A stretch of DNA of 64,000 nt from an uncultured Candidatus Saccharibacteria bacterium. Lineage in GTDB: Bacteria; Patescibacteriota; Minisyncoccia; Phycocordibacterales; Phycocordibacteraceae. The DNA is taken from assembly GCA_964446735.1 (NCBI GenBank), contig CAYUQB010000001.1:380460-444459 (forward strand). The letters run 5' to 3'. Made by a program: the position numbers and the translations under genes. Shown piece by piece: positions 2,129 to 41,534 of the stretch (its first letter is position 1; each line of letters opens with the position of its first letter). The notes beneath the pieces are model-generated. The model made no database searches. It worked only from the letters and a program-made list of their open reading frames with translations, and was not told the DNA's origin.

Positions 2129-2150
2129 CGCCCCGGTTACCCGGGGACGT
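2129..2150 (-). terminator. hairpin terminator downstream of guaA-remnant mini-ORF
   Basis: cgccccgg-ttac-ccggggacg stem-loop, followed on the minus strand by TTTTGTTTTT. Confidence 0.5.
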
Positions 2151-2169
2151 TCGCGTCGAAGTTCAAGAT

Positions 2170-2343
2170 CTATTCGGCGAGGGCTTCGCGAACCAGTCTG
2201 GCAGCGACTGCGGGGTCCACACCACCCGAAAGGCCGCAGATCACCTTCCCGTCGCCGACCTGGTCCCTGATGCGTTTGACCGCTTCGTCACGGAATTCGT
2301 CACGAAGCTGACCCTGCCGGGTCGCCTTTGATTTGCCTGTCAT
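2170..2343 (-). pseudogene. guaA: 57-aa remnant of the GMP synthase ATP-pyrophosphatase (PP-loop) domain
   Basis: [57 protein letters not shown] aligns to the start of the GuaA ATP-PPase domain (consensus FIEEAVxxIReQVGDxKVILGLSGGVDSSVxAxLL); PP-loop SGGVDS is mutated to SGGVDP; stop comes right after; AGGAGG RBS 7 nt upstream; below the ORF-track size cutoff. Confidence 0.6.
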
Positions 2344-2369
2344 TGGGCACCTCCTGGCTATAGCATAGC

Positions 2370-2397
2370 AAAACGCCCCGATCTCTCGGGGCGTTTT
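2370..2397 (-). terminator. intrinsic terminator immediately after rpsJ
   Basis: 12-bp perfect stem aaaacgccccga/tcggggcgtttt with 4-nt loop, followed by a U-run on the minus strand. Confidence 0.65.
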
Positions 2398-2411
2398 GCT
2401 AGTTGGTCCGT

Positions 2412-2774
2412 TTAGACCATCTTCACATCAATCGTCACACCGGACGGAAGATTGAGGTTCGTGAGAGCCTCAATCACTTTCGGATTCGGTGAGAGGATAT
2501 CGATGAGGCGCTTGTGGATGCGCATCTCGAACTGCTCGCGTGCGTCCTTATGAACGAAGGTCGAGCGGTTCACAGTCCATCGCTTGATCTCGGTAGGAAG
2601 CGGAACAGGACCAACGATTTTCGCGTCGAAGCGGTTCGCCGTATCCATGATCTGCTTGACCGAGAGGTCGAGGATCTTGTGCTCGTAGGCACGCACGCGG
2701 ATGCGGAGCTTTGGCTCTGTCGCGGCATCCGCGCCAGCTGCCTTCTTCGAGCTCTTCTTTGCGGTAGCGGCCAT
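2412..2774 (-). CDS. rpsJ: 30S ribosomal protein S10 with ~20-aa Lys/Ala-rich N-terminal extension
   Basis: [21 protein letters not shown]...[25 protein letters not shown]; conserved S10 core. Confidence 0.9.
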
Positions 2775-2795
2775 ACGAGTACTGGTCGTTCGCTA

Positions 2796-3995
2796 TTACG
2801 CGGTGATCTTCGTCACGACGCCGGCACCGACGGTCTTACCACCTTCGCGAATAGCGAAGCGGGTGTTGTCCTCAAGCGCGATCGGCGCAGTGAGCTTGAC
2901 CTTGAAGGTAACGGTATCGCCCGGCATGACCATTTCCTTGCCTTCCGGAAGGGTAACCTCGCCGGTGACATCGGTCGTGCGAACGTAGAACTGCGGCTTG
3001 TAGCCAGTGAAGAACGGCGTGTGACGGCCACCCTCATCCTTAGAAAGGATGTACACCTCTGCCTCAAAGTCGGTGTGCGGGGTAACGGTGCCGCTCTTTG
3101 CGAGCACCTGACCACGATGCACATCCTCCTTCTTCGTGCCGCGCAGGAGGATACCAGCGTTGTCGCCAGCCTGACCTTCCTGAAGCTGCTTGTTGAACAT
3201 TTCGATGCCAGTGACGGTCGTCTTGGCCGTCGGCTTAAGACCAACGATTTCGACTTCCTCACCAACCTTCACAATGCCGCGGTCGATGCGGCCCGTAACG
3301 ACGGTGCCACGACCTTCAATCGAGAAGATGTCCTCGATTGCCATGAGGAACGGCTTGTCGGTCTCACGGACTGGGTCCGGGAAGTAGGAGTCCATGGTGT
3401 CCACGAGCTCCTTAACCTTGAGCGCCCACTCGTCTTCAGCGCTGGTCGCCTCAAGCGCCTTAAGACCGGAGCCCTTGATGACGGGAGTGTCCTTATCAAA
3501 GCCCTGCTTGGTGAGAAGGTCACGAATTTCCTCTTCAACGAGGTCTACCATGTCCTTGTCATCCACCATGTCTACCTTGTTGAGGAAGACAATGAGCTTC
3601 GGCACACCCACCTGCTTTGCAAGAAGAATGTGCTCGCGGGTCTGCGGCATTGCGCCGTCAGTTGCGGCGACCACGAGAACTGCGCCGTCCATCTGGGCGG
3701 CACCCGTGATCATGTTCTTGATGTAGTCTGCGTGGCCCGGAGCGTCGATGTGCGCGTAGTGGCGGTTCGGCGTCTCATATTCCGAGTGGTGAAGCGCGAT
3801 GGTAATACCGCGCGCCTTCTCCTCGGGCGCGTTGTCGATGTTTTCGACCTTCTCTGCGCGAGCCTTGTAGCCAGCGCCAGAGTTGAGGTTGAGAACATTC
3901 AGAATGGAAGCCGTGAGCGTGGTCTTACCATGGTCGACGTGACCGATAGTACCTACGTTCATGTGCGGCTTGCTGCGATCGAATGCATCTGCCAT
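2796..3995 (-). CDS. tuf: elongation factor Tu
   Basis: 399 aa, [31 protein letters not shown] motifs. Confidence 0.95.
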
Positions 3996-4204
3996 AGGTT
4001 CGTAAATTACTGGTAGCTAAGTAAGCTGCCGTCCCGCCTGCCTGCGGTTGAAGGCAGGCGACCAAGGCGCTCCGGCGATTCCCCCGCGCAGCGCCTTTCA
4101 GCCGTCCTCCTCCCCTGTGGTCGGATAACATCGAAAAGAGCGCCGTACTCGCGTTAGGTGTAAAGGTACACGGCACGTTATGAAGCGTCAAGGAAATAAA
4201 AGGT

Positions 4205-4232
4205 CAGCCTCGCCGTTCTACCGGCGAGGCTG
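4205..4232 (-). terminator. hairpin terminator after GC-rich ORF 4259-4852
   Basis: 11-bp stem cagcctcgccg/cggcgaggctg. Confidence 0.5.
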
Positions 4233-4258
4233 GTGCAAAGCACGTAGGACAGGGTGAC

Positions 4259-4852
4259 TTACCCGGCGGCGAAGGCCGGCGTCTTGCCGCGGAAGCCACT
4301 TTTGGGCTTCTCCTCCCCGCGGGCGGCGGCCTTGCGGGCCTTCTTGCCGCACGGGTTCTGCTTGCGAGGCGCGTGACCTGGCTCGAACATCGTTTCGGCG
4401 AGCGGCGGCTCCTCATTGCGCAGGGCCGCCACCAGTTCCGCCTCGATGGTGACCGGGTCGACGACCGGCAGCGGATCGACGCATGGCTTGGGCTCGGCTG
4501 ACCACTGGAGTTGCCGCGGCCCGAAGAGCGCGGTCAGCTCGGCGTTCGGGAAGACCAGGCCGCTGGTGGCGACGAAGTGGCGGATCATGCCCATCGTGGC
4601 GCGGTCGCCCAGGTCGTAGAGGACCTGGTAGGCGCGGTCGAGCGGCTCGGGCTCGCTGAAGGTCCAGCCGTTGCCGACGCGGACCATGATGACGACGAAG
4701 GCGTGCTCTTTCTCAAAGAGCCGGCCGGCCTCGAGCATCTGCCACAGCGTGGCTTCGTCGTAGACGGGCTGCTTGAAGCGCGAGATCAGGTAGCCGACGC
4801 CGAATTCGGACTTCGGCTTGGTGTAGCTGCTGGCATCCGGAATCTTGGACAT
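4259..4852 (-). CDS. hypothetical protein (GC-rich cassette between tuf and fusA) with basic C-terminal tail
   Basis: 197-aa ORF, locally elevated GC, C-terminus APRKQNPCGKKARKAAARGEEKPKSGFRGK; no family recognised. Confidence 0.45.
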   Translation of the reverse strand: MSKIPDASSYTKPKSEFGVGYLISRFKQPVYDEATLWQMLEAGRLFEKEHAFVVIMVRVGNGWTFSEPEPLDRAYQVLYDLGDRATMGMIRHFVATSGLVFPNAELTALFGPRQLQWSAEPKPCVDPLPVVDPVTIEAELVAALRNEEPPLAETMFEPGHAPRKQNPCGKKARKAAARGEEKPKSGFRGKTPAFAAG

Positions 4853-4962
4853 GCTTTCCCTTTCGCTGTCCGTACTGGTTGATGAAAAGACGCCAGAGGC
4901 GCCGACTAACTGAACATTAGAGTAATAGAATTATTGAAAAAGTCAATGGGTTGGGGTCTTTC

Positions 4963-5409
4963 CTAGTGATGCCCACCGCCATGCCCACCGTGTGCCTCAG
5001 CCTTTTTTTGACCGCCGCCGCCGCCTCCTTCTCCTCGTATGGATTCAACCGCCCCCTTAAGAAGACCGCCCCCAATCGTCTTAACTCCTATGTGCCACCC
5101 CCAAAACCAGAGGAATCCAAAGAATCCTCCCACTCCTCCATGACCATGGCCGCCCTCATGATGTGCGGAGGCATGGTTGCCACTCGAGATTGGTGCACCT
5201 ACCGATATTCTGCCCGGAGCTGTAGCACTAGTCCGAGCAAGGTTCGCTTTGGTCTGTTCAATGGCTTGAGCGTTCTCTCCGGTTGCGGGGGGCGTCTGTG
5301 CATGTGCTTCGGCAGCTTGTGCCTCGGCTTCTACTGCGGCCTCATGATCTTCTTGAGTCTCTGGCACCTTGGGAGTTCGTTCAGGTCCAGCGGGAGGGTT
5401 TTCTGACAT
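4963..5409 (-). CDS. hypothetical His/Gly-rich low-complexity protein
   Basis: 148 aa with HHEGGHGHGGVGGFFGFLWFWGWHIGV and GGGGGGQKKAEAHGGHGGGHH; an alternative ORF on the opposite strand (4951-5406) is also open, so the strand is uncertain. Confidence 0.3.
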   Translation of the reverse strand: MSENPPAGPERTPKVPETQEDHEAAVEAEAQAAEAHAQTPPATGENAQAIEQTKANLARTSATAPGRISVGAPISSGNHASAHHEGGHGHGGVGGFFGFLWFWGWHIGVKTIGGGLLKGAVESIRGEGGGGGGQKKAEAHGGHGGGHH

Positions 5410-5444
5410 GTCTCAAGCTTAGCATCTCTCCCTAAAACGCAAGA

Positions 5445-5462
5445 AACCGCCTGTGGGCGGTT
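5445..5462 (-). terminator. terminator after fusA
   Basis: aaccgcc-tgtg-ggcggtt hairpin, then a U-rich run on the minus strand. Confidence 0.5.
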
Positions 5463-5484
5463 CCGTGCTGCACGCTCTGATCCT

Positions 5485-7632
5485 TTATTTCCTCGATGCA
5501 ATGATGTCTTGCGCAACGTTTTGAGGGACTACTTCGTAGTGATCGAACTCCATGGTCATTGAACCGCGACCTTCAGTCATGGAACGGAGGCTTGTGGTGT
5601 AGCCGAACATTTCTGAGAGCGGAACCTTCGCATGCACCGCCTTGTTCATACCGCGATCTTCCATTCCTTCGATGGCGCCGCGCTTTCCGGAAAGGTTGCC
5701 TGTGATATCACCCATGAACTGCTCGGGGATAACCACTTCGACATTCATGATTGGTTCGAGTATGACCGGCTTAGCTTTGTGTGCCGCTTCCTGGAAGGCC
5801 TGACTTGCTGCAATCTTGAACGCAATTTCAGATGAGTCGACTTCGTGGAAAGAACCATCGTAGAGGTCGACCGATACATCCACCATTGGGTAGCCGGCAA
5901 GCACGCCGCGTCCCATAGCTTCGCGAATACCCTTTTCGATCGGGTTGATGTATTCCGTCGGGATGACACCACCCTTGATGTTGTTGATGAACTCAAAGTG
6001 GTCCTCACGGGTAACGTTCTTGGGAATCTTGGCATCTTCTGCAAGCGGCTCGAGGTGCTTCACCTTGATCTTCACGTGGCCGTACTGACCCTTACCACCC
6101 GTCTGCTTGATGTACTTGTTCTCGACATCGGCGGCGCCAAGAATTGTCTCGCGGTATGCCACCTGTGGCTTACCCACATTCGCTTCCACGTTGAACTCTC
6201 GCTTCATGCGATCCACGAGGATCTCCAGATGGAGCTCACCCATACCTGCCATGATGGTCTCGCCGGTCTCCTCATCCGAAGAAATCTTGAAGGTTGGGTC
6301 CTCGTCCGAAAGCTTACGAAGTGCCATACCCATCTTTTCCTGGTCGGCCTTAGTCTTCGGCTCGATGCGAAGAGAAACCACTGGCTCAGGGAACTTAATC
6401 TCCTCAAGGAGGATCGGATTCGCTTCGTCGCAGAGCGTGTGCGACGTCTTAGTGTCCTTAAGACCTACCATTGCCGCAATCTCACCCGTGAAGACGGTCT
6501 CGACTTCCTCACGCTTATCCGCCTGGAGTCGCACGATGCGACCGACACGCTCTTTGTTACCGGTGTTGGCATTGTAGACATACGAGCCGGCAGAGACGGT
6601 ACCGGAATACACACGGAAGAAGGTAAGCGCACCAACGAAGGGATCGGTCTGAAGTTTGAATGCAAGTGCCGTGAACGGCTCCTTGTCGTCTGCCGTACGC
6701 TCTACTTCTTCACCAGTCTTGGGGTTCGTTCCCTTTACCGGAGGGAGATCAAGCGGACTGGGGAGATAGTCGACAACCGCATCAAGTACGAGCTGTACGC
6801 CCTTGTTCTTCAAGGCTGAACCGGTGTAGACCGGGAAGATTTCATTTGCGATCACCGCCTTGCGGAGGGTCTTCTTCAGATCCTCGACGGAAGGTTCGTT
6901 ACCCTCGAAGTATGCATTCATCTGCGCCTCGTCATGTTCGACAATGCGCTCAATGAGCTCGGCGCGGTACTTCTGTGCCTCAGCTTTGTACTGTTCCGGT
7001 ACTTCGCCCTCGGTGACTTCTTCGCCCATATTGCCGCTGAAGGTGTAGGCCTTCATGGACAGGAGATCGATGACACCCTCAAAATCGTTCTCAGCACCCA
7101 TAGGGAGCTGCGCACGCACGGCCTTCTTCGACAGGCGGTCGAGGATCGACTTATAGGAGTCTTCGAACGATGCGCCCGTGCGATCCAATTTATTGATGAA
7201 ACAGACGCGTGGCACATTGGCTTCGTCTGCATAGCGCCAGTTGGTTTCCGACTGTGGCTCTACTCCTGCCACACCGTCAAACACCACAATCGCACCATCC
7301 AAAACGCGCATCGAGCGCTTCACTTCTGCGGTGAAGTCGATGTGTCCTGGGGTATCGATGATGTTGAAACGAAACTTCTTCGACGTATCCTTCTTATCCG
7401 GTTCGCTGGTTTTGCTCCAGAAGCAGGTGATGGCAGCAGCGGTGATGGTGATACCGCGCTCACGCTCCTGCTCCATCCAGTCGGTGGTCGTCTGGCCCTC
7501 ATGCACCTCGCCGATTTTATGCTGGGAGCCCGTGTAGAAGAGCACACGCTCGGACGTGGTCGTTTTACCTGCGTCGACGTGGGCGACGATGCCGAAGTTG
7601 CGCACTTTTTCCAGGGGATAATCGCGATTCAT
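5485..7632 (-). CDS. fusA: elongation factor G
   Basis: 715 aa, [28 protein letters not shown]. Confidence 0.95.
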
Positions 7633-7713
7633 AGAGTAAATGACTAAATAAAAAAGCCCGCAGATGCGTTAGCTACAAGATACGTTTTGGAGACTGAAAA
7701 CGCAAGAAAAGAA

Positions 7714-7741
7714 ACGGGCGCCCCAGCGATGGGACGCCCGT
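7714..7741 (-). terminator. hairpin after KGG-protein gene
   Basis: acgggcg...cgcccgt stem followed by a U-rich tract on the minus strand. Confidence 0.4.
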
Positions 7742-7770
7742 CGGTCGTGGGCCGGGAGGCTGGGGTCGGT

Positions 7771-7977
7771 CTAGAGGCCGTGCGCCCTGCCGCCGCCGCG
7801 CGAGGCCTCGCCGCCCTTCTTGCCGGCGCTGGCCGCGAGGTCGCGGTCCTTCGCGAAGGACCGCTTTTCGCCGGGGACGGCCGCGCCGCCCTTCCTCGCG
7901 ATCTCGCGCCTGCGCTCAGGGTTCATTGCGGCGAAACCGCGCCTGGCGCGGGGCTTTCCGGTGGTGTCGGTCGGCAT
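7771..7977 (-). CDS. KGG-repeat stress-induced protein (YciG-like)
   Basis: RGFAAMNPERRREIARKGGAAVPGEK...SAGKKGGEASRGGG matches the KGG motif GFASMDPEKQREIASKGG; GC-rich. Confidence 0.55.
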   Translation of the reverse strand: MPTDTTGKPRARRGFAAMNPERRREIARKGGAAVPGEKRSFAKDRDLAASAGKKGGEASRGGGRAHGL

Positions 7978-8124
7978 GCTGGGGTTCCTTCCCTCGATGC
8001 GGTTGAACGTTGTACGCTACTGGCCGGGATAATACGTCTATTGTAGAAAAAAGCAAGTGATGGGAAGACAAGCCACACAAGAAGTGCTACGCTCCACGCT
8101 AGTTGTAGTGCAGGGGGAATACCA

Positions 8125-8628
8125 ATGTTGATCGCTCGATTACAACATCATGAGCCCGAACAGCTAACCTCCCCGCTTGCTGTTTCGAAAGTGCGCGAAG
8201 GAGATTTCCCACGCTTCGCTCCTGGGTTTGAGGCCGACCTTATCTGCCTTTTGGGGCAGATCGAGGCCACCTTCCAGATCAGGGACCTGGAGTACGTGCC
8301 GTGGCAGATCGTTGCGGGCGTGGTGATCTTCGAACCTCCGAGCGGGTTTGCGCAGGCACCGTACGGCGCCCCGATCCAGTACCCGCAGAACGCACTCGCA
8401 TTCGAGGGAACCGCTCTCTCGTTCTGGTGCTGTCGGGGAAAGTTCGAATCAGACGCGTGGCTCCCGAGCTCCTGCCTGCGGCTGTGCGTCGTGGAGCTCG
8501 CCCGACTGCATCACGCGTATGCCTACGGGAAATGCGTGAACCCATGCATGATGCTCCACCTGGTGGCGCACTCGATGGGTCGTAGCGTCAAACGAAATGT
8601 CGAGGGCATCCGGAGTGTACTGACCTGA
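8125..8628 (+). CDS. hypothetical Cys/His-rich protein (GC-rich cassette)
   Basis: 167-aa ORF divergent from the KGG gene; followed by a bidirectional terminator; several overlapping ORFs in other frames because of the high GC. Confidence 0.35.
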   Translation: MLIARLQHHEPEQLTSPLAVSKVREGDFPRFAPGFEADLICLLGQIEATFQIRDLEYVPWQIVAGVVIFEPPSGFAQAPYGAPIQYPQNALAFEGTALSFWCCRGKFESDAWLPSSCLRLCVVELARLHHAYAYGKCVNPCMMLHLVAHSMGRSVKRNVEGIRSVLT

Positions 8629-8652
8629 TGCCCATTGTTCCTGACAAAGAAA

Positions 8653-8690
8653 GCGCGCCCTTCTCGGGCGCGCAATCTTTTTTTTATCGG
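8653..8690. terminator. bidirectional terminator (serves ORF 8125-8628 on + and rpsG on -)
   Basis: 8-bp GC stem gcgcgccc/gggcgcgc followed by TTTTTTTTT on + and TTTCTTTG on -. Confidence 0.6.
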
Positions 8691-8699: not shown

Positions 8700-9164
8700 T
8701 TACCAAGCAAAGTGGGCGAACGCTTTGTTCGCATCGGCCATGCGGTGCATGTCCTCCTTTTTCTTGATTGCTTCGCCCTCGTTCTTGGCGGCCATGAGGA
8801 TCTCGTTGGCAAGCTTCTCGGCCATAGGCTTTCCCTTCTTGGCACGGGCGGCGTTGATGAGCCAACGGTACGCGAGAGAAACGCGGCGCTGCTGGGGAAC
8901 CTCGCGCGGGACCTGGTAGTTAGCACCACCAACACGGCGTGAGCGGACTTCCATCAATGGCGAGACGTTACGAATGGCGGTCTCGAAGGTTTCGAGCGGA
9001 TCCTGTTCATTCTTCTTGATGATCTCAAGTGCGTCGTAGACGACTTTGCGTGCCGTGTCCTTCTTTCCATCCCACATAACGGTATTGATGAAGCGAGAAA
9101 TCGCATCGGACTGGTAGACGAGGTCGGGACGGCGAACCGGCTTGTTTTTGATAGGACGGCGCAT
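8700..9164 (-). CDS. rpsG: 30S ribosomal protein S7
   Basis: [35 protein letters not shown]. Confidence 0.9.
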
Positions 9165-9169: not shown

Positions 9170-9577
9170 TTACTTAGGCTTCTTAGCTCCGTAGCGCGAG
9201 CGGCCACGACGACGCTTATCAATACCGGCGGTATCAAGCTTGCCGCGGACGATGGTGTACTGGACACCAATGTCCTTCACGCGACCGCCGCGAAGCAGCA
9301 CCACTGAGTGCTCCTGGAGGTTGTGGCCCTCACCCGGAATGTAGGCGGTCACTTCCATACCGTTAGAAAGGCGTACACGAGCAATCTTGCGGATTGCGGA
9401 GTTTGGCTTACGAGGGGTCTTCGTGGTGACCTTCACGCACACACCGCGCTTAAAGGGTGCCGGGTAGTATTCCGGACGATTCTTGAGCGCGTTGAAGCCA
9501 CGCGAAAGAGCCGCAGTCCGGTCTTTGCGTGTCCGGTCCTTGCGGGACTTCTTCGTGAGCTGATTGATGGTGGCCAT
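9170..9577 (-). CDS. rpsL: 30S ribosomal protein S12
   Basis: [16 protein letters not shown]...[37 protein letters not shown]. Confidence 0.95.
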
Positions 9578-9695
9578 TGGTCAAATGAAAACCCGCCGTG
9601 CGGGATGGGCTCACTATATAGAAAGGCCTATATAAATGCAAACAGGGGTACCTTGCCGACTTCTCCATACCGGTCGATAATCCGGCCAGTGGGCG

Positions 9696-10940
9696 TTGTA
9701 CTCGACAATTCAACCTGCACATCGGGAGCACACGATGGATATCGCATCCGTTCAAACCGTTACCCTGCCCGATGGCAGGAAAGTGAACGTATCCGCCACC
9801 GAAGAGCCGTGGTGGAGTATGGACGACACGTCCGGCTACGTCGACCCGCACACCATAGCCGCAGATCCGGACCAGCCACGACGCTTCATGAAAGCGACCG
9901 ATCTGGAGGAGCTGGAGGAAAGCGTACGGGAATGTGGCGTCAGACAACACATCGTCGTCACTCCCCGACATCTGGCCCCGTGGGCTCGGGTCCTCCCCGA
10001 GGAAGAGCACTGCTTCTTCCTCAACGTGAGCGGACACCGCCGAAAGAAGTGCGCGGTCAAGTCCGGTCAACGCGCGGTTCCGATCCACATCCGGGTTTAC
10101 GCTGACCAAGATGCGCACGAACGCGATCGTTCGGTCCTGAATGCCGCGCACTCGGAGCTCACTGCCCTTGAAGAAGGGTGGGAGATGCTCAATCACCGCG
10201 AGCGTGGCTGGAAGATCGAGAAGATTGCGCGCACCTTCGGCAAGTCCGTGCCGGAAGTCTACCGGCGCATCAACCTGACGAGGCTTCATCCAGAGATCCA
10301 GGCGCTCTTGTCGCCCGAGCTTGAGGAGAAGAAGCGATTGTCGGTGGTGGTGGGCTCGGCGCTCGGCGGGCTCAAGGAACCGACGCGGGAGGAACTTCTC
10401 GACCTGTACCGGAAATTCGGCGAGGGCCTGCCCGGCTTCGAGCACCTGGCTGACCTCGATGAAGAAGAGGAGGACTTCGAGGAAGAATCGGACTCGAACG
10501 ACCGGGCCGCAGCCGACGTGCGCCGGTTTACCGCCCAGAAGCTTCTGTTGGCGTACACGGCCAGCAAGTACATGAGCGGAGTGCGCGCTGCAGCCTTCAT
10601 CAAGGACGAGTCGCACCACCTCGAAGCTTCTCGCGGACATTCCGGAGCGGGCCGACCGGTCACTCGGTTCGAGCCCCGCAAGCGCAAAGAGGTCATCAAG
10701 GGACTCGTGAAGCTTGTCACCGGTTCGCCGGTGATGGACTGGAACCCACGGGAGCTTGAGCGCATTTTCGATCTTTCCTCCCGCGAGGAGATCGAAGAAG
10801 TGATCGGGCAGCTCAAGAGCGTCACCGGATTCCTCGAGGGTCTCATCACGGTCCTCGAGCGACTCCGTGATCGTAAGCAGCCCATGCGTCCAGAAACACG
10901 CCGCATTATGGAGCAGCGAGCGCGGGCGGCGGGCGGCTGA
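9696..10940 (+). CDS. ParB/Srx-like nuclease-domain protein with HTH (atypical GHRR box)
   Basis: DPDQPRRFMKATDLEELEESVRECGVRQHIVV...FFLNVSGHRRKKCAVKSGQRAVPIHI resembles the ParB N-terminal box (GERRxRA becomes GHRRKKCA); GWKIEKIARTFGKSVPEVYRRINLTRL is a ParB-type HTH; acidic stretch LDEEEEDFEEESD; GC-rich; the antisense ORF 9450-10640 is judged spurious. Confidence 0.6.
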   Translation: MYSTIQPAHREHTMDIASVQTVTLPDGRKVNVSATEEPWWSMDDTSGYVDPHTIAADPDQPRRFMKATDLEELEESVRECGVRQHIVVTPRHLAPWARVLPEEEHCFFLNVSGHRRKKCAVKSGQRAVPIHIRVYADQDAHERDRSVLNAAHSELTALEEGWEMLNHRERGWKIEKIARTFGKSVPEVYRRINLTRLHPEIQALLSPELEEKKRLSVVVGSALGGLKEPTREELLDLYRKFGEGLPGFEHLADLDEEEEDFEEESDSNDRAAADVRRFTAQKLLLAYTASKYMSGVRAAAFIKDESHHLEASRGHSGAGRPVTRFEPRKRKEVIKGLVKLVTGSPVMDWNPRELERIFDLSSREEIEEVIGQLKSVTGFLEGLITVLERLRDRKQPMRPETRRIMEQRARAAGG

Positions 10941-10959
10941 TAGTTTGTACAGTAAATTG

Positions 10960-10983
10960 TGGGCGCGCCTCGCGGCGCGCCCA
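10960..10983. terminator. bidirectional GC hairpin between ParB-like gene and CYTH gene
   Basis: tgggcgcgcc-tcgc-ggcgcgccca. Confidence 0.5.
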
Positions 10984-10995
10984 CGTTAATTATGC

Positions 10996-11565
10996 TCACT
11001 CGTTTGTCCCGAACCGCTTCTCCAAAAGTTGAATGTCGTACCGACGCACTCCGATATCCGCAGGCGAAATCCCAAGAGATACTAAGAATTCCCGAAGCTG
11101 TTGACTTATCGTATCGACATCTGCGTCATGGTCGGCACACTGCTCCACTTCGATAAAAGACCCCAGACCCTCCACCTCATCCAAACAAATCTCCCAATTC
11201 TTGAGATGCGCGCTTGTTCGCGTCTTAGTAATTTCAAGCATAGGTTCAAACCCCAAGAGAGTGAGCATCGCTTCCAGTTCGGAACGAGAGCTCACATCCA
11301 CCTCATGCTCTATCGGCATCGACGCGTCACGTACATCACGCGTTCGGTCCGGATGATATTTCAGGGTGAACGTGACGGTTGTTGGTGTCTGGCGAATACG
11401 AAGGAATACCTCATTCCCAAGAAATGCATCCATGGATTGGGTACGCCTGGCGTACACGACGTCTTCCTGCCGCACTGCTTCGACAAATGACGCTCCTAAT
11501 TCCTCGAGCTTTCGCTTTACCTCCTCCCGATCGCGCAGATGCGCCTTCACTTCAATCTCGCGCAT
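10996..11565 (-). CDS. CYTH-domain protein (class IV adenylate cyclase/CyaB-like, triphosphate tunnel)
   Basis: MREIEVKAHL... start and EIEVK/EICLDEVEGLGSFIEVE pattern typical of the CYTH/CyaB family. Confidence 0.55.
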   Translation of the reverse strand: MREIEVKAHLRDREEVKRKLEELGASFVEAVRQEDVVYARRTQSMDAFLGNEVFLRIRQTPTTVTFTLKYHPDRTRDVRDASMPIEHEVDVSSRSELEAMLTLLGFEPMLEITKTRTSAHLKNWEICLDEVEGLGSFIEVEQCADHDADVDTISQQLREFLVSLGISPADIGVRRYDIQLLEKRFGTNE

Positions 11566-11566
11566 A

Positions 11567-11959
11567 TCAGTTCTTCCCCTCTCTGCGATACCGTTCTTTC
11601 ACCTCCTTGTACGCTGCTTCGGTACCGGGATTTGCGCCATGCGCTTCCCGGTTGAATATCTCAACCGGGTATTTCTCCTCCACTTTCTCCAGTTTCTCCC
11701 GAAGAATCTCCTCAACATCAAGGTTGAGCGTCACCGCCATTTCGAAACAATAGATCATCACGTCGGCAAGTTCCTTGCGGATCGCTTCCATTTTCTCTGC
11801 GTCCGCCTGTACCTCATGCGGTGGTTGGTTATCCCACTGAAAAACCTCAAGAAGCTCCGCGCCTTCGATCATGACCGACTTGGCAAGATCTGCGGGACGA
11901 AGTTCATCCCACCCACGCTCCGCAAGGTGCTTGCGTATGATCTCTGAAAATTCCTGCAT
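11567..11959 (-). CDS. MazG-like nucleotide pyrophosphohydrolase
   Basis: DLAKSVMIEGAELLEVFQW and ELADVMIYCFEMA, the EExxE/D metal-binding helices of all-alpha NTP-PPases. Confidence 0.6.
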   Translation of the reverse strand: MQEFSEIIRKHLAERGWDELRPADLAKSVMIEGAELLEVFQWDNQPPHEVQADAEKMEAIRKELADVMIYCFEMAVTLNLDVEEILREKLEKVEEKYPVEIFNREAHGANPGTEAAYKEVKERYRREGKN

Positions 11960-24575: not shown

Positions 24576-24602
24576 AAAAAAATTCTAGCACGCAAAAAGC
24601 TC

Positions 24603-24634
24603 GGAGCCGGGTTTCTCGTTCGAGAAACCCGGCT
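24603..24634 (-). terminator. hairpin terminator after small GC-rich membrane ORF
   Basis: 14-bp stem gagccgggtttctc/gagaaacccggctc, then GCTTTTTGCG on the minus strand. Confidence 0.55.
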
Positions 24635-24658
24635 CACGTGCGGCCGATGGAGTGACCG

Positions 24659-24997
24659 CTAGCGCGCGCGAGCGCGCGAGCCGCCGAACAAGGGGGCGAA
24701 GAGGCCTCCGAGGTAGCTCGCGACGACGCCTAGAGCGAACGCAGCGCTGATGTCGTACCCGTCCTCATAGGCGAGGACATTGCGGCACAGCACCGCGCCG
24801 ATGACGCCCAGAAGGACGAAGACGCCTGATGCGAGCAGGCCCTCCGCCCTGATCTTCTGCGCGAGCCAGGTCCAGACGAGGCCCGCTCCCATGATGCCGA
24901 TGGCCCAGGGGATGAAGCCGCCGTCCACCACTGGTAGGCCAAGGGCGGTGCCGGCGAGCACCACTCCGAGTATGGCGGTTAAAACGAACTTGGACAT
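24659..24997 (-). CDS. small GC-rich membrane protein inserted between pilC and pilB
   Basis: 112 aa, 3-4 predicted TM helices, Gly/Ala/Leu-rich; own terminator. Confidence 0.45.
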   Translation of the reverse strand: MSKFVLTAILGVVLAGTALGLPVVDGGFIPWAIGIMGAGLVWTWLAQKIRAEGLLASGVFVLLGVIGAVLCRNVLAYEDGYDISAAFALGVVASYLGGLFAPLFGGSRARAR

Positions 24998-25086: not shown

Positions 25087-26841
25087 TTAGCCGTCGTTCA
25101 CTGCGCGAAGCACTTCCTCAACCGAAGTGATGCCCCGTGCTGCTTTGTAAATTCCGTCTTCAAGCATAGTGAGCATGCCTTCTTTGCGTGCCTGCGCTTC
25201 AATGGCGTCGGGGGATGCACTATGCAGCACGAGATCACGAATGGTAGGTGATACGGTCAGAATCTCATGAATGCCAATGCGGCTCTTGTAGCCATCCTCG
25301 CATTCAGCTGAAGGTTTCGGATGGTAAAACGGGAGCGTATCGAGCTTGGTGCCTTCCTTCACCAACTTCTCCTCTTTAAGGGAGGTAAACGCCGCTTCGA
25401 ACTTATCCGCGGTCGCCACTTTATCACGCGCTTGTTGGTCGAGCGTGTACTCTTCTTTGTCATCGCACAGACGACGCACGAGCCGCTGTCCCACGACGAG
25501 TCTGAGCGTGGAGACGAGGAGGAAGGGTTCCACTCCCATGTCCATGAGACGAGGGATGGCACCAGCAGCCGAGTTGGTGTGAATCGTCGAAAGCACGATG
25601 TGACCAGTGAGCGCCGCATTGATCGCAAGCGATGCCGTTTCGCTATCGCGGATCTCACCCACCATGATGATGTTTGGGTCCTGACGCAGCAGTGCGCGCA
25701 GGCCTGCCGCAAAGGTCATACCAATTTGTGGGTTCACCTGCGTTTGGTTGACCCGTTTCATTTGGTATTCAATTGGATCCTCGATGGTGGAAATGTTTAC
25801 GTCCGGCGTATTGAGAATATCGAGAATGGTATAGAGCGTTGTCGTCTTGCCGGAACCGGTCGGACCCGATACCAAAATGATGCCGGTCGTCTGTTTCGTC
25901 GCCATATGAATCCGCTCCAGGGTTTCTCCGTGGAACCCGAGCGCTTCAAGAGTGAAGCCTTCGCCCGTCTCGCGCAGAAGGCGCATCACGATCTTCTCGC
26001 CGTAGTAGGTCGGAAGAAGAGAAACACGGAAGGAAACCTTCTCACCATCGGTCTCCATTTTGAAGCGACCGTCCTGCGGGAGACGCTTCTCATCGAGCTT
26101 TAGGTTCGAGAGCACTTTGATACGTGCGGTGATACCAGGTCCTGCATTCTTCGGAAGCGTCATCGCGTCGTGGAGCATACCGTCAATTCGGTATCGCACG
26201 AGCGTCGCCTCTTCCATGGGCTCAATGTGAATGTCAGACGCGTCCTGAATGATTGCATGACGCAGCAATGTGTCCACGATACGAACGATTGGGAGATCTT
26301 CCGCCATCTTCTTGAGGTCTTCACCCGACGCATCCTCACCGATGGCTTCTTTCACTAAATTAATGCGCCCAGCTTCGGTGGTGATAAGATCGCCGAATTC
26401 TTCTTTGAGAGACTTCTGATATTGCAGGAGGGCGTGCTTGAGCGACTCATCATCCGTAAGTCGGGGCTGAATATTAAAGCCAGTCTTTTTACGTACCGAG
26501 TCGATTGCGGGCAGATCCTGTGTATCGAGCATTGCTACTTCCAGATCGGAACCATCCTTACGAAAGGCGACGATGCTGTGAGTGCGCGCAATAGGCTCTG
26601 GAATAAGTGAAAGCACTTCAAGCGGGATCTTCTTGTCCTTCAGATTCACGAACGGAATGCCAAGAACGTACGCCTTAATGCGACGGAGCGCATCTTGGGT
26701 AAGCGCGCCTTGCGACACGAGAATGTCGCCGATTGATTGCTGACGTTCTTTCGCTTCTGTGTCAGCCGCTTCAACATCTTTGCGCGGCACGAGACCAGAA
26801 TCGAGAATGAACGACTTCAACTCGCTTTCAGAAACTTGCAT
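25087..26841 (-). CDS. pilB: type IV pilus assembly ATPase PilB (GspE family)
   Basis: Walker A LVSGPTGSGKTTTL, Asp box, His box IRDSETASLAINAALTGH; start taken at MQVSESELKSFILD. Confidence 0.9.
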   Translation of the reverse strand: MQVSESELKSFILDSGLVPRKDVEAADTEAKERQQSIGDILVSQGALTQDALRRIKAYVLGIPFVNLKDKKIPLEVLSLIPEPIARTHSIVAFRKDGSDLEVAMLDTQDLPAIDSVRKKTGFNIQPRLTDDESLKHALLQYQKSLKEEFGDLITTEAGRINLVKEAIGEDASGEDLKKMAEDLPIVRIVDTLLRHAIIQDASDIHIEPMEEATLVRYRIDGMLHDAMTLPKNAGPGITARIKVLSNLKLDEKRLPQDGRFKMETDGEKVSFRVSLLPTYYGEKIVMRLLRETGEGFTLEALGFHGETLERIHMATKQTTGIILVSGPTGSGKTTTLYTILDILNTPDVNISTIEDPIEYQMKRVNQTQVNPQIGMTFAAGLRALLRQDPNIIMVGEIRDSETASLAINAALTGHIVLSTIHTNSAAGAIPRLMDMGVEPFLLVSTLRLVVGQRLVRRLCDDKEEYTLDQQARDKVATADKFEAAFTSLKEEKLVKEGTKLDTLPFYHPKPSAECEDGYKSRIGIHEILTVSPTIRDLVLHSASPDAIEAQARKEGMLTMLEDGIYKAARGITSVEEVLRAVNDG

Positions 26842-27353
26842 ATCTATACCAAAAGTATAGCGCGTAACGTGTAACACGCTTGCGATAAAAAGAATAATTG
26901 TGAATCGGAACCCTAGGTTCGCTCTGGTTTCGTTCCAGCAATTTCCAATCGAAAAGTTTTATTGATCCGTGAAACTCGAGCAAGTGCAGAATGTCTCTTC
27001 TGGGTGTCGGCTACTGTATGAAATTGAATAACTTTTTAGCGATGCGCCCAACTACTTGGGGGGAGAACTTACTATCGACTCCTACATTCCGCTACGCGTG
27101 AAATTATTCTTGCTTCAATAATTAATATGAGCGTGAAAGATCTCTTTATACCAGCAGGGATATCGGACTCGTATTAATTTCAAATGGAAGCAGCATGAAA
27201 CGTTTATACACTCAGGACGCGAAGATAAGTTCCGCTCCATCTTGTCTGGATTGACGCCATACCTATATATGGTATCCTTCCGCTATCTGAGATGTCCGCA
27301 CCCGCGGGCATTTCTCTTTAAAAAGGTGCGACAACTGAATAACGCATGGGCTT

Positions 27354-29314: not shown

Positions 29315-29401
29315 CTCGATCAAGAAATCGCCCCGGTTTATGACCGGGGCGATTTCTTATACACCATTCACCTTTCTCAATTCCATCCTATACTTATATA
29401 T

Positions 29402-31994: not shown

Positions 31995-32196
31995 AAGCAA
32001 GTAGATAGGCCGCGAAATAAGCAGTCGTATACCGACTGCTTATTTCATATACCAGACCACAAAAGCAGCGTTTGAGCCACTATCCCCAGGTTTTCTGGGC
32101 CCTATTGCACAAAATGGCTCATTTCCTATACTTTTTGACGTAGCCCTTCCATCGGGCTCTGTGCGGCCCGAAAGGGATTAAATCTAACGACCTACC

Positions 32197-32469
32197 ATGA
32201 ACAAAGCAGACATCGTAGCAAAGGTGCAGGAAACCCTCGGTGGTACGAAGGCTGATGCCGATCGCGCTGTCGAGACTGTCATCGATTCCATCACGTCTGG
32301 ACTCAAGTCCGGCGACGAAGTATCGATTGCAGGACTCGGCATCTTCCAGGCAAAGGCACGCCCGGCTCGCACCGGCCGCAACCCGCGCACTGGCGAGACC
32401 ATCAAGATCGCTGCTACCCGCACTCCGAAGTTCCGCGCCGCTAAGGCACTTAAGGACGCGGTCAAGTAA
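32197..32469 (+). CDS. hup: DNA-binding protein HU
   Basis: MNKADIVAKVQE...GLGIFQAKARPARTGRNPRTGETIKI. Confidence 0.9.
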   Translation: MNKADIVAKVQETLGGTKADADRAVETVIDSITSGLKSGDEVSIAGLGIFQAKARPARTGRNPRTGETIKIAATRTPKFRAAKALKDAVK

Positions 32470-32483
32470 GACCTCTCTCCTAC

Positions 32484-32515
32484 GAAACAGCCCCGCATAA
32501 AGCGGGGCTGTTTCG
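32484..32515 (+). terminator. intrinsic terminator after hup
   Basis: aaacagccccgc-ataa-gcggggctgttt perfect hairpin + TCGTTT. Confidence 0.65.
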
Positions 32516-32516
32516 T

Positions 32517-38901: not shown

Positions 38902-38914
38902 TACCTCAAATAGA

Positions 38915-38967: not shown

Positions 38968-39077
38968 CACTTTCGATGCATACCGCGTTTGGAGGCGTAA
39001 AATTGGAGCTGGGGCTTGTTTTGGTTTCCTCCAGGAGATATGTGGGTTTGCATCGATCTTCAAAGAACTTGATGCGC

Positions 39078-39089
39078 TTTCACGTGAAA
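39078..39089. repeat. parS-like palindrome TTTCACGTGAAA (copy 4, intergenic)
   Basis: perfect 12-bp palindrome. Confidence 0.5.
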
Positions 39090-39300
39090 TCACGGCTGAA
39101 CCCTCTTTTAATTCAGGAGATACGCTCCGATTACGTAGGACGGCCTTTTTCGCGTGTTTACGCCTGATCGAAAGAACTCTCAAAGAACAACCGTCCCGGG
39201 ATTGCTCTTTGAAGTCTCTCGACCATTGAGCCGTCCCGCTGTTCTTTAGTATATTTCCTTATAGGACAATGTAAAGGACATGGATCTGTGGATATGTCCT

Positions 39301-40092
39301 TTAGATTTCTATAGACACTGGGCAGTGATCTGACCCCTCTACTTCTGGGTGCACATCTCCTTTCTGTATATGTTTTGCGAAAGATTTGGTCGCGAACACG
39401 TAATCAATGCGCCAACCGACATTTCGCTCCCGAGCGTTACCCCAGTGGCTCCACCACGTATAGAATCCATTCCCTTGTTTAAACATTCGGAACGTATCAA
39501 CGAAGCCCGCATTGATGATATTATCGATACCCTCACGCTCCTCTCTCGTAAATCCTTTCATCCCTTCATTTTCCTTTGGTCGAGCAAGGTCGTCTGCGGT
39601 GTGTGCAACGTTTAAATCACCACAGAAAATAACAGGTTTTTCTTCTTCAAGGCGCTTCATGTATTCAAGGAAAGCGGGGTCCCAATGTTTGTGACGAAGG
39701 GTGAGACGCGAAAGATCATCCTTGGCATTCGGCGTGTAGACCGACACTACGTAAAAATCATGCATATCGGCTGCGACGATTCTTCCTTCCTGGTTCGGGT
39801 CGCCATATCCATCTCCTGCAAGTCCCCATTTTTCTGCTAGGTCGTCGGGCATGCCGAAGATGACGTCGTTGGGTGTCATCTTGGTGAATATTGCGGTACC
39901 GCTGTACCCCTTCTTTTTCGCGGAACTCCAGAACTCCTCATAGTCCGGGAGATCCAGCGGAGATTGGTGCTGCTCTGCTTTTGTTTCTTGAAGGCAGAGA
40001 ATATCTGGCTTGTACTTCTTAATGAAGGGGAGGAAGAGTCCTTTCTTATGAACGGCGCGTATGCCGTTCACGTTCCAGCTCATGATGCGCAT
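39301..40092 (-). CDS. xth: exodeoxyribonuclease III (AP endonuclease)
   Basis: MRIMSWNVNGIRA, CLQETK, SDHCPVSIEI. Confidence 0.9.
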   Translation of the reverse strand: MRIMSWNVNGIRAVHKKGLFLPFIKKYKPDILCLQETKAEQHQSPLDLPDYEEFWSSAKKKGYSGTAIFTKMTPNDVIFGMPDDLAEKWGLAGDGYGDPNQEGRIVAADMHDFYVVSVYTPNAKDDLSRLTLRHKHWDPAFLEYMKRLEEEKPVIFCGDLNVAHTADDLARPKENEGMKGFTREEREGIDNIINAGFVDTFRMFKQGNGFYTWWSHWGNARERNVGWRIDYVFATKSFAKHIQKGDVHPEVEGSDHCPVSIEI

Positions 40093-40113
40093 ACCCGTAT
40101 TCTACGCTATCAC

Positions 40114-41031
40114 CTATTGCTGACGGGAGTGGAACCGTTTATGAATTTCGCGTAAATGTGAGTCGGTAACGTGTGTATAGATCTGAGTAGTATTGATAGA
40201 CGCGTGCCCAAGAAGGGCCTGAACGCTACGTAAATCGGCGCCGTTAGATAAAAGATCGGTGGCGAACACATGACGAAGCGTGTGGGGCGTGACCTTGGTG
40301 GTAATGCCTGCTTTGGCAGCGTACGTCTTAATGTGTCGTTGCACATCTCGGGGGGTAATGCGGTGGAGTCGATTTGGTCGCCCTTCGACAAAAAGAGCTT
40401 CTTCCATGTCTTTGCGTTCTTTTAGGTACTCCATGACCGCAGCTTTCGCAGCAGGCGAGAGAAAGACTACTCGAACTTTCTCACCCTTACCTCGCACGGA
40501 CAGGTCATCGCGGGATAGATCGATATCAGCATTCAAGGCACAAAGCTCTGCGACACGTAGGCCAGTTGAGAAAAGAAGCTCCAATATGGCTTTATCGCGC
40601 AACAACCTAATACGTTTGTCTTGATCTTCTTCCTTCTTCAGCGCGTCCTCTGGAGCACGAAGGAGTCGAGTTAGTTCCTGAGCAGTGACGACGTCGATCT
40701 GTCGTTCGGGGAGTTTTGCAAGTTCAATACGTTCCGGATTTAGGCCCTCAATACCACGCCTACGCAGATACTTGAGGAATGCTCGCAGTGCGATGAGGTA
40801 GTAGTTTTGCGTGCGACGCTTCATGGTCGCATTCCCCGTACCCGGCTGACGATTGAGCCAGAGTCGGAATTCGCGAATTCGATCTTCCGTAATGTCTCCG
40901 ACCTGCTCGATCTTCATTTGATCGAAGAACACTGCAAGGTAGTGGTCGTAGTTTTCGACTGTTTTCACGGCTCGCCCCTTCTCAATCTCGGTGTATTCGA
41001 GAAATTCGCGCTTCATTTGAGCCGCATTCAT
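40114..41031 (-). CDS. xerC: tyrosine site-specific recombinase XerC/XerD family
   Basis: RDKAILELLFSTGLRVAEL, HTLRHVFATDLLSNGADLRSVQALLGHASINTTQIYTHV with catalytic R..HxxR..Y; start set at internal MNAAQMKREF (ORF track opens at 41145). Confidence 0.8.
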   Translation of the reverse strand: MNAAQMKREFLEYTEIEKGRAVKTVENYDHYLAVFFDQMKIEQVGDITEDRIREFRLWLNRQPGTGNATMKRRTQNYYLIALRAFLKYLRRRGIEGLNPERIELAKLPERQIDVVTAQELTRLLRAPEDALKKEEDQDKRIRLLRDKAILELLFSTGLRVAELCALNADIDLSRDDLSVRGKGEKVRVVFLSPAAKAAVMEYLKERKDMEEALFVEGRPNRLHRITPRDVQRHIKTYAAKAGITTKVTPHTLRHVFATDLLSNGADLRSVQALLGHASINTTQIYTHVTDSHLREIHKRFHSRQQ

Positions 41032-41068
41032 AGCAAAAGTATACCAAGCAGAGTGCGCACAATATGGA

Positions 41069-41093
41069 GCTGCCCGGGGAGGACCCGGGCAGC
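41069..41093 (-). terminator. hairpin after GC-rich ORF 41102-41437
   Basis: gctgcccggg-gagga-cccgggcagc. Confidence 0.45.
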
Positions 41094-41101
41094 CACAAGG
41101 T

Positions 41102-41437
41102 TCATTGTGCAGCAACGCGAAGCGCTTGCGGTGCGATGCACTCAACGACCCAACATCCGGCGCCGCATCTCATGAGCGCAACGTGCTCGAACATCAGGTG
41201 CGCTTCCTGCTGAGCAGGGAAGTGCCAGTAGCAGAACTGTTCGTCCTGACACTGCGGTGGTGCAAGGAAGCGGTCGAACCCCGCGGTCTCGGCAACCGGC
41301 ACGAGCACCACAAAGCGGTCGATGTCGCTTTGCAAGCCAGCAAAGTGTCGAGCGGAGAAGTCTGCGACATCCTCTTCGTCGAGGGAGGGGCAGACTTCGC
41401 TCGGACACCAAGAAATTATTCGTACAAAAGTGTCCAT
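41102..41437 (-). CDS. hypothetical Cys-rich protein (GC-rich cassette)
   Basis: ORF 41102-41488, probably starting at MDTFVRIISW; elevated GC; no family recognised. Confidence 0.35.
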   Translation of the reverse strand: MDTFVRIISWCPSEVCPSLDEEDVADFSARHFAGLQSDIDRFVVLVPVAETAGFDRFLAPPQCQDEQFCYWHFPAQQEAHLMFEHVALMRCGAGCWVVECIAPQALRVAAQ

Positions 41438-41534
41438 TTCAGCCCCCATCTCACAGGAAAGAGGAACGCCACTACGGCCTTTCTTCACCCTACAACACTT
41501 GCGCTTTTAATCAAGGTGTGGTAAGGTATGGCCA

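Follow-up and report, generated by a model that had tools for sequence, protein, structure and literature searches.

The str–S10 cluster of ribosomal-protein and elongation-factor genes is a textbook case of frozen gene order. In Escherichia coli and Bacillus the str and S10 operons run rpsL–rpsG–fusA–tuf and then rpsJ–rplC, with a unit boundary between tuf and rpsJ. In the 64,000-nucleotide stretch of contig CAYUQB010000001.1 analysed here (assembly GCA_964446735.1; the whole stretch is referred to as the window), the gene order is the same, but tuf and rpsJ are tightly packed (median spacer of 67 bp in the lineage) and the breaks come after rpsG, fusA and rpsJ. At these junctions, and at a few others between conserved genes, are small single-gene units, referred to here as cassettes, most of which are followed by a strong hairpin. 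The cassettes are probably unrelated, independently transcribed accessory genes that occupy turnover slots at existing transcription-unit boundaries, and not copies of one mobile element.

Closest among described phenomena are the integration hotspots and flexible genomic islets between core genes, a concept from E. coli and wider pangenome studies that includes ‘additive’ and ‘replacement’ islands. As in those, the positions described here are fixed and bounded by core genes, their content is variable, of mixed origin and often orphan, the slots usually lack mobility genes, and gain, loss and decay can be recognized, the last in a relic of guaA. The same junctions hold different, non-homologous content in related genomes, both in the str–S10 cluster and between the type IV pilus genes pilB and pilC, as is expected of a hotspot or islet. 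The slots of the window differ in lying inside the str–S10 cluster, in holding one or two genes and in coinciding with intrinsic terminators, and flank recombination is only inferred for them. Integron cassettes are likewise single, promoter-poor open reading frames (ORFs), each with a following imperfect inverted repeat, many being orphans with a composition unlike that of the host. Here, in contrast, an IntI, an attI or attC consensus and a tandem array are all lacking, the hairpins are terminators of the ordinary kind, found after native genes too, and at least two cassettes (o4259 and KGG; ORFs are named below by first coordinate or by product) have promoter-like hexamers of their own.

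In a survey of 125 Patescibacteria genomes, transfer was found to be mostly within the phylum, with occasional Pseudomonadota and other donors (PMC12455944, mSystems 2025). Among the genes transferred are those for ribosomal proteins, tuf and rpsL, and both individual genes and islands are described in the streamlined genomes of candidate phyla radiation (CPR) bacteria (PMC12455944). These transfers are compatible with exchange across the str–S10 region; the searched passages of that paper contain neither junction-specific str–S10 slots nor a link to terminators, and the word ‘hotspot’ is nowhere in its text. Literature searches returned no description of such slots within the str–S10 cluster of CPR bacteria.

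The window has an overall GC content of 53.3% and belongs to a contig of 516,752 bp. Its fusA is 88–90% identical to those of metagenome-assembled genomes labelled Kaiserbacteria, Patescibacteria or Parcubacteria, and the source appears to be a small genome of Kaiserbacteria type, within the Paceibacteria. An Rfam scan of the window found four tRNAs only, with no match in the leaders. On the minus strand lie rpsL (9170–9577), rpsG (8700–9164), fusA (5485–7632), tuf (2796–3995), rpsJ (2412–2774) and rplC (733–1338). A sequence-only reading of this DNA had described seven modules, each a short GC-rich ORF with its own terminator wedged between normally adjacent genes. All seven ORFs are present where it placed them, and a further unit at 1508–1774 and a doubtful one at 4963–5409 raise the number of small single-gene units in spacers to nine. 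The arrangement of gene plus terminator is real, but the units do not form one single kind of cassette.

We examined 80 syntenic loci around fusA and measured spacer occupancy in 50–64 related Paceibacteria, counting a spacer as occupied when it was at least 300 bp long and recording a hairpin when one with a free energy (ΔG, in kcal/mol throughout) of −12 or below came right after the stop codon of the upstream gene. Three junctions are frequently occupied: fusA|tuf in 87% of cases (median 1161 bp, largest 9.2 kb; hairpin after fusA in 67%), rpsG|fusA in 44% (median 185 bp; hairpin after rpsG in 48%) and rpsJ|rplC in 38% (median 229 bp; hairpin after rpsJ in 62%). Between them are two tight junctions, rpsL|rpsG (2% occupied, median 40 bp, hairpin after rpsL in 11%) and tuf|rpsJ (2% occupied, median 67 bp, hairpin after tuf in 18%). 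Hairpins are found even where the spacer is short, and the invaded junctions are therefore likely to be pre-existing transcription-unit boundaries of the lineage, the cluster being apparently split into the units rpsL–rpsG, fusA, tuf–rpsJ and rplC onwards. Extra DNA gathers only between the terminator of one unit and the promoter of the next, and its content varies between species.

At the nucleotide level, homology to the closest relatives breaks off precisely at the fusA, rpsG and rpsJ stop codons and resumes at the leaders of fusA (to 7678–7709), tuf (to 4023–4195) and rplC (to 1367–1418); the promoter-like hexamers and leaders of fusA and tuf are conserved among close relatives. The gaps of the relatives contain 252 ORFs in 222 clusters, mostly co-oriented with the operon, and Pfam matches among them include toxin–antitoxin parts, purine and pyrimidine enzymes, an asparaginase, a kinase and surface proteins. 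Among 25 of the 81 matched families, one of 150 gap proteins matched a transposase family (IS200 type) and none an integrase family. Presence of the same genes at the same sites throughout the lineage, which the sequence-only reading had named as grounds for giving up foreign acquisition, was not observed: the cassette proteins of the window are absent from the 80 syntenic loci, save for a 66%-identical KGG protein in the relative L048. The neighbours of the cassettes, described in that reading as normally adjacent, are so at pilB|pilC, where most of about 70 relatives have a spacer of 4–80 bp, but not at fusA|tuf with its 87% occupancy, nor at xerC/rpsO, where the genes are divergent and form no operon junction.

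Across a whole CPR class the str–S10 order is thus interrupted at three defined junctions, with accessory genes turning over there. The rule that emerges, that extra genes settle where a terminator already closes a transcription unit, may help to explain how streamlined genomes gain genes without harm to essential operons.

With a strong hairpin defined as one of ΔG ≤ −20 kcal/mol at most 70 nt from the stop codon, eight of nine cassettes are followed by one, versus 11 of 47 ordinary genes (Fisher P = 4 × 10−4). Comparable hairpins follow the native rpsJ, fusA, rpsG, rpmB, rpsO and HU genes; as native genes carry the same structures, these appear to be the way in which monocistronic units ordinarily end here. 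The hairpins of the cassettes, when compared, have no common sequence consensus, and a T-run is missing from those of the ParB-like gene and o41102. The proposal that each cassette brings its own GC-clamp terminator thus holds in that eight of nine have a strong hairpin; native core genes have them too, and two of the cassette hairpins have no T-run.

Bounding the rpsG|fusA slot on its downstream side are the predicted fusA promoter and leader (7633–7709, minus strand; −35 TTGCGT at 7700–7705, −10 TATCTT at 7677–7682, spacing 17), conserved with the relatives L002, L003, L004 and L048 as far as 7678–7709. Next to it is the KGG/YciG unit (7713–8056, minus), comprising an ORF of 68 amino acids (7771–7977), a terminator (7713–7742) and predicted −35 (TTGCTT, 8051–8056) and −10 (TATTAT, 8029–8034) hexamers. 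The product matches the Pfam family KGG (E = 5 × 10−11) and falls in a 90%-identity cluster of proteobacterial ‘general stress protein YciG’ that includes Phenylobacterium (Caulobacterales), with about 88% identity. Its homologues are located on contigs of 62–68% GC, with DNA identity of at most 79% that is confined to the coding sequence. The GC-rich tract of this cassette runs from the terminator through the ribosome-binding site, and its promoter region is AT-rich. L048 carries its KGG gene at the same junction, but the flanks of the two copies are not orthologous, and the protein of the window resembles its proteobacterial counterparts more closely than it does that of L048. KGG is thus, in all likelihood, a recent import from a high-GC alphaproteobacterium and the only cassette that is demonstrably foreign, for which the proposed high-GC origin stands. 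A search of plasmid DNA with the KGG cassette gave no match; matches in IMG/VR exist, on high-GC contigs. A nearly intact Caulobacterales-type stress gene inside an uncultivated Kaiserbacterium offers an ecological lead.

The same slot holds o8125 (8125–8673, plus), which encodes a Cys-rich protein of 167 amino acids and converges on rpsG, the two genes having in common a bidirectional terminator (8653–8673, ΔG −21.7). Its sole match in 1.84 billion representative proteins is itself, and a variant differing by two amino acids (P0019) is present in another assembly. Neither o8125 nor o24659, at the pilus junction, has a homologue in 1.84 or 5.8 billion proteins; together with o1508 and o41102, each alone in its 90%-identity cluster, they are classed as orphans. 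At 9624–9863 (plus) of L048, directly before fusA, lies a 79-amino-acid membrane ORF with a GC content at third codon positions (GC3) of 0.83, compared with 0.55 for fusA of the same host. It has its own promoter-like hexamers and terminator, and no recognizable similarity to o24659.

The fusA|tuf slot extends from the fusA terminator (5443–5464, minus, ΔG −19.7) to the predicted tuf promoter and leader (3996–4200, minus; −35 TTGACG at 4186–4191, −10 TACCTT at 4163–4168, spacing 17; leader of about 190 nt). Between them is the o4259 unit (4205–4946, minus), with an ORF of 197 amino acids (4259–4852), a terminator (4205–4232), predicted hexamers TTGACT (−35, 4941–4946) and TACTCT (−10, 4919–4924), and a 5′ untranslated region (UTR). 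The sole homologue of its product, P0025 (40% identity), is encoded in the same slot of the relative L082, flanked by the 3′ end of fusA on the upstream side and by the tuf leader on the downstream side. The TTGACT promoter, a block of the 5′ UTR, the terminator position and the tuf leader are conserved between the two loci, and the flanks are 81–83% identical; GC3 is 0.90 in the window and 0.76 in L082. Near-identical variants of o4259 are present on other contigs, and an AlphaFold model of the protein is poor (predicted local distance difference test score, pLDDT, of 49). From its conserved position and signals, o4259 appears to be an orthologous, fast-evolving resident of the lineage rather than a recent import, contrary to what had been proposed for it.

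Between the fusA terminator and the o4259 promoter is the doubtful ORF o4963 (4963–5409, minus; 148 amino acids), of Gly/His/Ala-rich low complexity. It is absent from the protein collection, has no family match, and no gene is called there in the gene list of the independent assembly L001. At the equivalent position L082 has an unrelated membrane-anchored gene of 197 amino acids. Two other relatives have the fusA 3′ end directly duplicated in this gap, L014 (12037–12137 and 15260–15360, 98% over 101 bp) and L069 (12028–12100 and 12247–12319, 96% over 73 bp); as the repeat of L014 sits between two paralogous inserted genes, it points to tandem segmental duplication at the slot. The tuf leader contains a hairpin (4035–4060) and is at least 80% conserved in L082, L048 and L003, whose nucleotide homology with the window stops there, with a TAACGC...GGCG core found also in more distant Kaiserbacteria. 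It matches no Rfam family and may be an undescribed regulatory leader.

At the upstream edge of the rpsJ|rplC slot is the rpsJ terminator (2366–2401, minus), a perfect 16-bp stem of ΔG −30.2. Below it is the guaA relic unit (2128–2343, minus), with an ORF of 57 amino acids (2170–2343), a strong Shine–Dalgarno sequence and a terminator (2128–2155, ΔG −20.6). Its product corresponds to the N-terminal start of the ATP-pyrophosphatase domain of GMP synthase (PDB 1gpm, E = 9 × 10−9; NCBIfam guaA match), and aligns also to the stand-alone GMP synthase subunit B from residue 6; its P-loop reads SGGVDP in place of SGGVDS. The identification as a genuine GMP synthase fragment, made earlier from the letters of the sequence, is borne out by these matches, and the fragment is a decayed remnant of an earlier occupant of the slot. 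The rpsJ and relic terminators have 12 nt in common (CAAAACGCCCCG), which bracket the relic; each copy is simply the 5′ portion of an ordinary terminator, and terminators of this type are also present at 29322 and 37139.

Also in this slot is o1508 (unit 1471–1774, minus; ORF 1508–1774, 88 amino acids; terminator 1471–1494), which the sequence-only reading had not listed. Its hairpin (ΔG −28.3) begins about 13 nt past the stop codon. The product, a predicted coiled-coil, has no Pfam match, is alone in its 90%-identity cluster and has no homologue in the 80 syntenic loci. In the spacer between the relic and o1508 is TAAGGAGGTGATCC (1998–2011, plus), a 14-nt perfect complement of the universal 3′ tail of 16S ribosomal RNA. 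It matches nothing in Rfam and has no start codon at Shine–Dalgarno distance; read on the minus strand, it would act as an anti-Shine–Dalgarno mimic upstream of o1508.

Upstream of rpsL, and divergent from it, is the ParB-like gene (9735–10985, plus), encoding 401 amino acids from the ATG at 9735, with an alternative TTG start at 9696, the ORF ending at 10940. The hairpin at 10958–10985 is common to this gene and the convergent CYTH gene. The protein matches ParB_N (E = 3 × 10−9) and, weakly, HTH_ParB; the GHRR motif, an arginine patch, is invariant in all four members of the family, and the family profile matches structures of ParB, Spo0J and Noc (E = 1.5 × 10−14). It has the N-terminal domain and helix–turn–helix expected of ParB, but neither a partner ParA, none adjoining the gene, nor the canonical C-terminal dimerization domain, and it scores below the NCBIfam parB cut-off (45 versus 58.45). 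The C-terminal 200 residues are unique to the family and poorly modelled by AlphaFold (pLDDT of 56).

The gene has three full-length homologues, all on metagenome contigs of 2–3 kb and none pointing to a high-GC donor. The best of them (48% identity) lies in the same context of ParB, CYTH, MazG and M50 genes, and the other two adjoin leuS and 23S ribosomal RNA. In plasmid and phage protein searches the only matches were to the N-terminal domains of ordinary ParB proteins, at about 30% identity. The proposed foreign import of this gene is at odds with the shared context and the lack of any sign of a high-GC donor, and it is better described as a putative fast-evolving resident of the lineage. 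It is absent from L002, where the CYTH–rpsL spacer measures 78 bp. Between it and the M50 peptidase gene are genes for a CYTH (class IV adenylate cyclase-like) protein and a MazG-like pyrophosphatase (10996–11959, minus). These vary in presence among close relatives, L002 lacking MazG and L048 lacking CYTH; the region upstream of rpsL is thus also variable.

Away from the str–S10 cluster, between pilB (25087–26877, minus) and pilC (23361–24575, minus), is the o24659 unit (24576–24997, minus), with a membrane ORF of 112 amino acids (24659–24997), a terminator (24604–24635, ΔG −30) and a predicted pilC promoter box TAGAAT (24582–24587). Its sole database match is itself, and no homologue was found among about 70 metagenome relatives with the pilB|pilC pair. 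The spacer in these relatives is usually short, but about 12 of the 70, several among the closest, have insertions of 0.2–2 kb. In the nearest relative by pilB, L105 (83% identical), the same place holds a non-homologous small membrane ORF with a GC3 of 0.88 and its own terminator. This junction appears to act like the str–S10 slots in a subset of relatives. The relatives that bear insertions (L105, L109, L130–L132 and L160) have a TGCTAnnAT box 7–9 nt before the ATG of pilC, and those without have a Shine–Dalgarno sequence and a spacer of 4–8 nt; a box so near the start codon suggests a leaderless pilC mRNA.

The last of the nine, o41102 (41069–41437, minus; ORF 41102–41437, 111 amino acids, Cys-rich; hairpin 41069–41093, ΔG −25.2), lies upstream of a tyrosine recombinase gene (40114–41031, minus), with rpsO (41535–41801, plus) on its other side. 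It is alone in its 90%-identity cluster, without viral relatives in IMG/VR, and is a weak member of the set.

In base composition the cassettes are likewise heterogeneous. Forty ordinary genes of the window, used as the reference, have a GC content of 0.524 ± 0.021 and a GC content at synonymous third positions (GC3s) of 0.523 ± 0.035, and the native ribosomal and elongation-factor genes are already enriched (GC3s 0.58–0.72; tuf 0.715; the HU gene has a GC3 of 0.66). Only KGG (GC 0.749, GC3s 0.924), o4259 (0.673, 0.904) and o24659 (0.667, 0.832) lie far beyond every native gene in GC3s, 9–12 standard deviations above the ordinary genes; o1508 has a GC3s of 0.788. The ParB-like gene (0.739), o8125 (0.713), the guaA relic (0.661, inside the native ribosomal range) and o41102 (GC 0.583, GC3s 0.629, z = 3 only) are inside the range of the native ribosomal and elongation-factor genes or slightly above it, and o4963 is GC-rich at its first and second positions (0.72 and 0.56) with a GC3s of 0.42. 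The GC enrichment ascribed to all seven modules is accordingly extreme in three, near the native ribosomal range in the others, and not convincing in o41102.

The codons CGT, GGT, CTT, GTT and GCA, which ribosomal genes use at 24–47%, are nearly absent from the three extreme genes, whose preference for GTC, CTC, GGC and GCC is that of genes on the high-GC contigs bearing KGG. The GC-rich tracts extend from terminator to start codon and have sharp boundaries. In a per-codon log-likelihood test, however, every cassette falls inside the host range, and under a codon model of ribosomal genes o4259 scores −0.96, equal to the ribosomal genes themselves. A match of codon usage to the core genes, the other observation that was to speak against import, is therefore found in the likelihoods but not in the GC3s and synonymous choices of these three genes, and composition alone is ambiguous. 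Expression-linked codon bias alone was considered as the cause of their high GC3 and rejected, since their GC3s is above that of tuf and they shun T-ending codons found in ribosomal genes; for o4259 the idea is kept alive by the likelihood test. As native highly expressed genes are also GC3-rich, composition by itself over-calls foreign DNA in this genome, a point of caution for annotation.

That all cassettes are recent foreign imports of high GC, for example from the host of an epibiont, each bringing its own GC-rich terminator, is unlikely. This account covers KGG with its Caulobacterales relatives of about 88% identity, and it draws on the three GC3s values above every native gene, on the avoided codons, on the codon preference matching the KGG-bearing contigs and on GC-rich tracts that span terminator to start codon. 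It does not extend to o4259, with its orthologue and conserved signals in the same slot of L082, or to the ParB-like gene, found in the same context in another relative and with no high-GC donor among its full-length homologues. Among billions of proteins, o4259, o8125 and o24659 have no homologue in any high-GC organism; four cassettes have GC3s not or barely above that of native ribosomal genes, and the codon log-likelihoods of all are those of the host. The content of the slots is of mixed origin, comprising the KGG import, the residents o4259 and ParB-like gene, the guaA remnant and four orphans. Repeated acquisition of foreign high-GC genes, as first suggested, thus finds its example in KGG and is contradicted by o4259 and the ParB-like gene. 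A dedicated insertion system (integron-like attC sites and integrase, hairpin targeting of the type of the insertion sequences (IS) IS200/IS605, miniature inverted-repeat transposable elements (MITEs) or homing) is very improbable. The hairpins at cassette ends, the tyrosine recombinase gene next to o41102, the CAAAACGCCCCG pair around the guaA relic, the dispersed repeats in some relatives and the IS200-type transposase in the gap of one relative might be taken to indicate one. The recombinase, though, scores 242 bits under the Xer model, above the cut-off of 220, and falls short of the integron-integrase models (scores of 119 and 70 for cut-offs of 265 and 435), and it appears to be a housekeeping Xer protein, the only recombinase found. 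An integron was rejected on this score, on the lack of attC-like sites and on the scatter of the cassettes over 40 kb between core genes, where an array would be expected. Searches for target-site duplications and shared border repeats gave chance-level matches only, apart from CAAAACGCCCCG, itself an ordinary terminator half; no paralogy was found among the cassettes and no transposase domain in their proteins, and a transposon, IS or MITE origin was rejected on these grounds. IMG/VR scans were empty for the ParB-like gene, o8125, o4259, o24659 and o41102, which set aside a viral origin, and PADLOC and PHROGs returned nothing for the orphans. With no duplications, shared repeats or paralogy, with Xer alone and with no viral or defence matches, and with hairpins that lack a consensus and follow native genes too, a systematic insertion mechanism is rejected in the form once suggested; what is systematic is the location, at junctions with terminators across the whole lineage.

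A slender chance is left to the possibility that the cassettes other than KGG are native and owe their GC3 to a local and persistent force, either GC-biased gene conversion in a recombination hotspot or strong selection for C-ending codons in small, highly expressed genes. Highly expressed native genes do prefer C-ending codons (GC3 0.58–0.72 versus 0.52), o4259 has the likelihood of a ribosomal gene and has kept a high GC3 in both species despite 40% protein identity, and small membrane ORFs of high GC3 but lacking detectable homology are seen repeatedly in the same slots of relatives. Yet GC3s values of 0.83–0.92 exceed that of tuf, and stronger translational selection on orphans than on tuf is implausible; A- and T-ending codons common in ribosomal genes are almost absent, the boundaries of the GC tracts are sharp, and KGG shows that real high-GC imports enter the slots. 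The probability that high-GC reads were spliced into a CPR contig during assembly is negligible, since compositional contrast is all that suggests it. An independent Logan assembly (L001) reproduces fusA–o4963–o4259–tuf, matching window positions 3795–6001 at 100% over 2207 bp and spanning both gap junctions, near-identical variants of o4259 and o8125 occur on other contigs, and intact native promoters and terminators lie on either side of the inserts, each of which has a start codon and a ribosome-binding site.

For accessory genes turning over at unit boundaries, the reading we prefer, a simple course may be envisaged. DNA landing in a slot would be kept only when the essential neighbours are left undisturbed, and this selective filter would favour monocistronic units that are short and carry their own strong terminator, and this would give the cassettes their repeated look. 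Entry may have been by uptake of environmental or host DNA, the genome encoding a type IV pilus (pilB/pilC), and then by recombination, whether illegitimate or assisted by homology. Exchange between relatives, with the very conserved flanking genes as homology arms, would be a second route.

Several observations weigh against this reading. The transcription units, promoters and terminators are predicted from the DNA sequence alone, and a donor is known for KGG only. Sliding identity of the flanking core genes to L002, L003, L004 and L048 is uniform at 70–90% and reveals no recent recombination tract, the relatives being distant. Simple foreign origin does not account for the very high GC3 of the resident o4259 (0.90) and of the non-homologous small membrane ORFs that relatives have in the same slots. 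Among gap ORFs of the relatives a strong terminator is present in only 20%, and of their occupied gaps only 17% contain a GC-rich island, versus five of six sites with this look in the window; the tidy appearance of a GC-rich gene plus hairpin would thus be largely a property of this genome. The slots are lineage-wide, and the tidy look is accentuated in the window genome and a few close relatives (L048, L082 and L105).

Most interesting is the GC3 excess that persists in slot genes, both resident and non-homologous. It is conceivable, although we regard it as quite unlikely, that the three terminator-marked str–S10 junctions and pilB|pilC are gene-capture sites of Kaiserbacteria, which sample the DNA of a high-GC partner and spawn fast-evolving, GC3-rich orphans. 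If so, the genes in the cassettes, for example the Caulobacterales-like KGG, would keep a record of the organism that the uncultivated cell lives on, and the persistent GC3 excess would mark an unusually strong local regime of recombination or GC-biased conversion.

Dispersed repeats of 60–130 bp with about 80% identity, MITE-like in look and with none in the window, occur in several spacers of one operon in L018 (9103–9225, 17335–17471 and 18375–18506) and in L013 (4086–4286 and 9502–9641). Within the window, the HU gene (32197–32469, plus; GC3 0.66) is flanked by long perfect hairpins at 32014–32046 and 32482–32516, and is a native monocistronic gene that resembles the cassettes.

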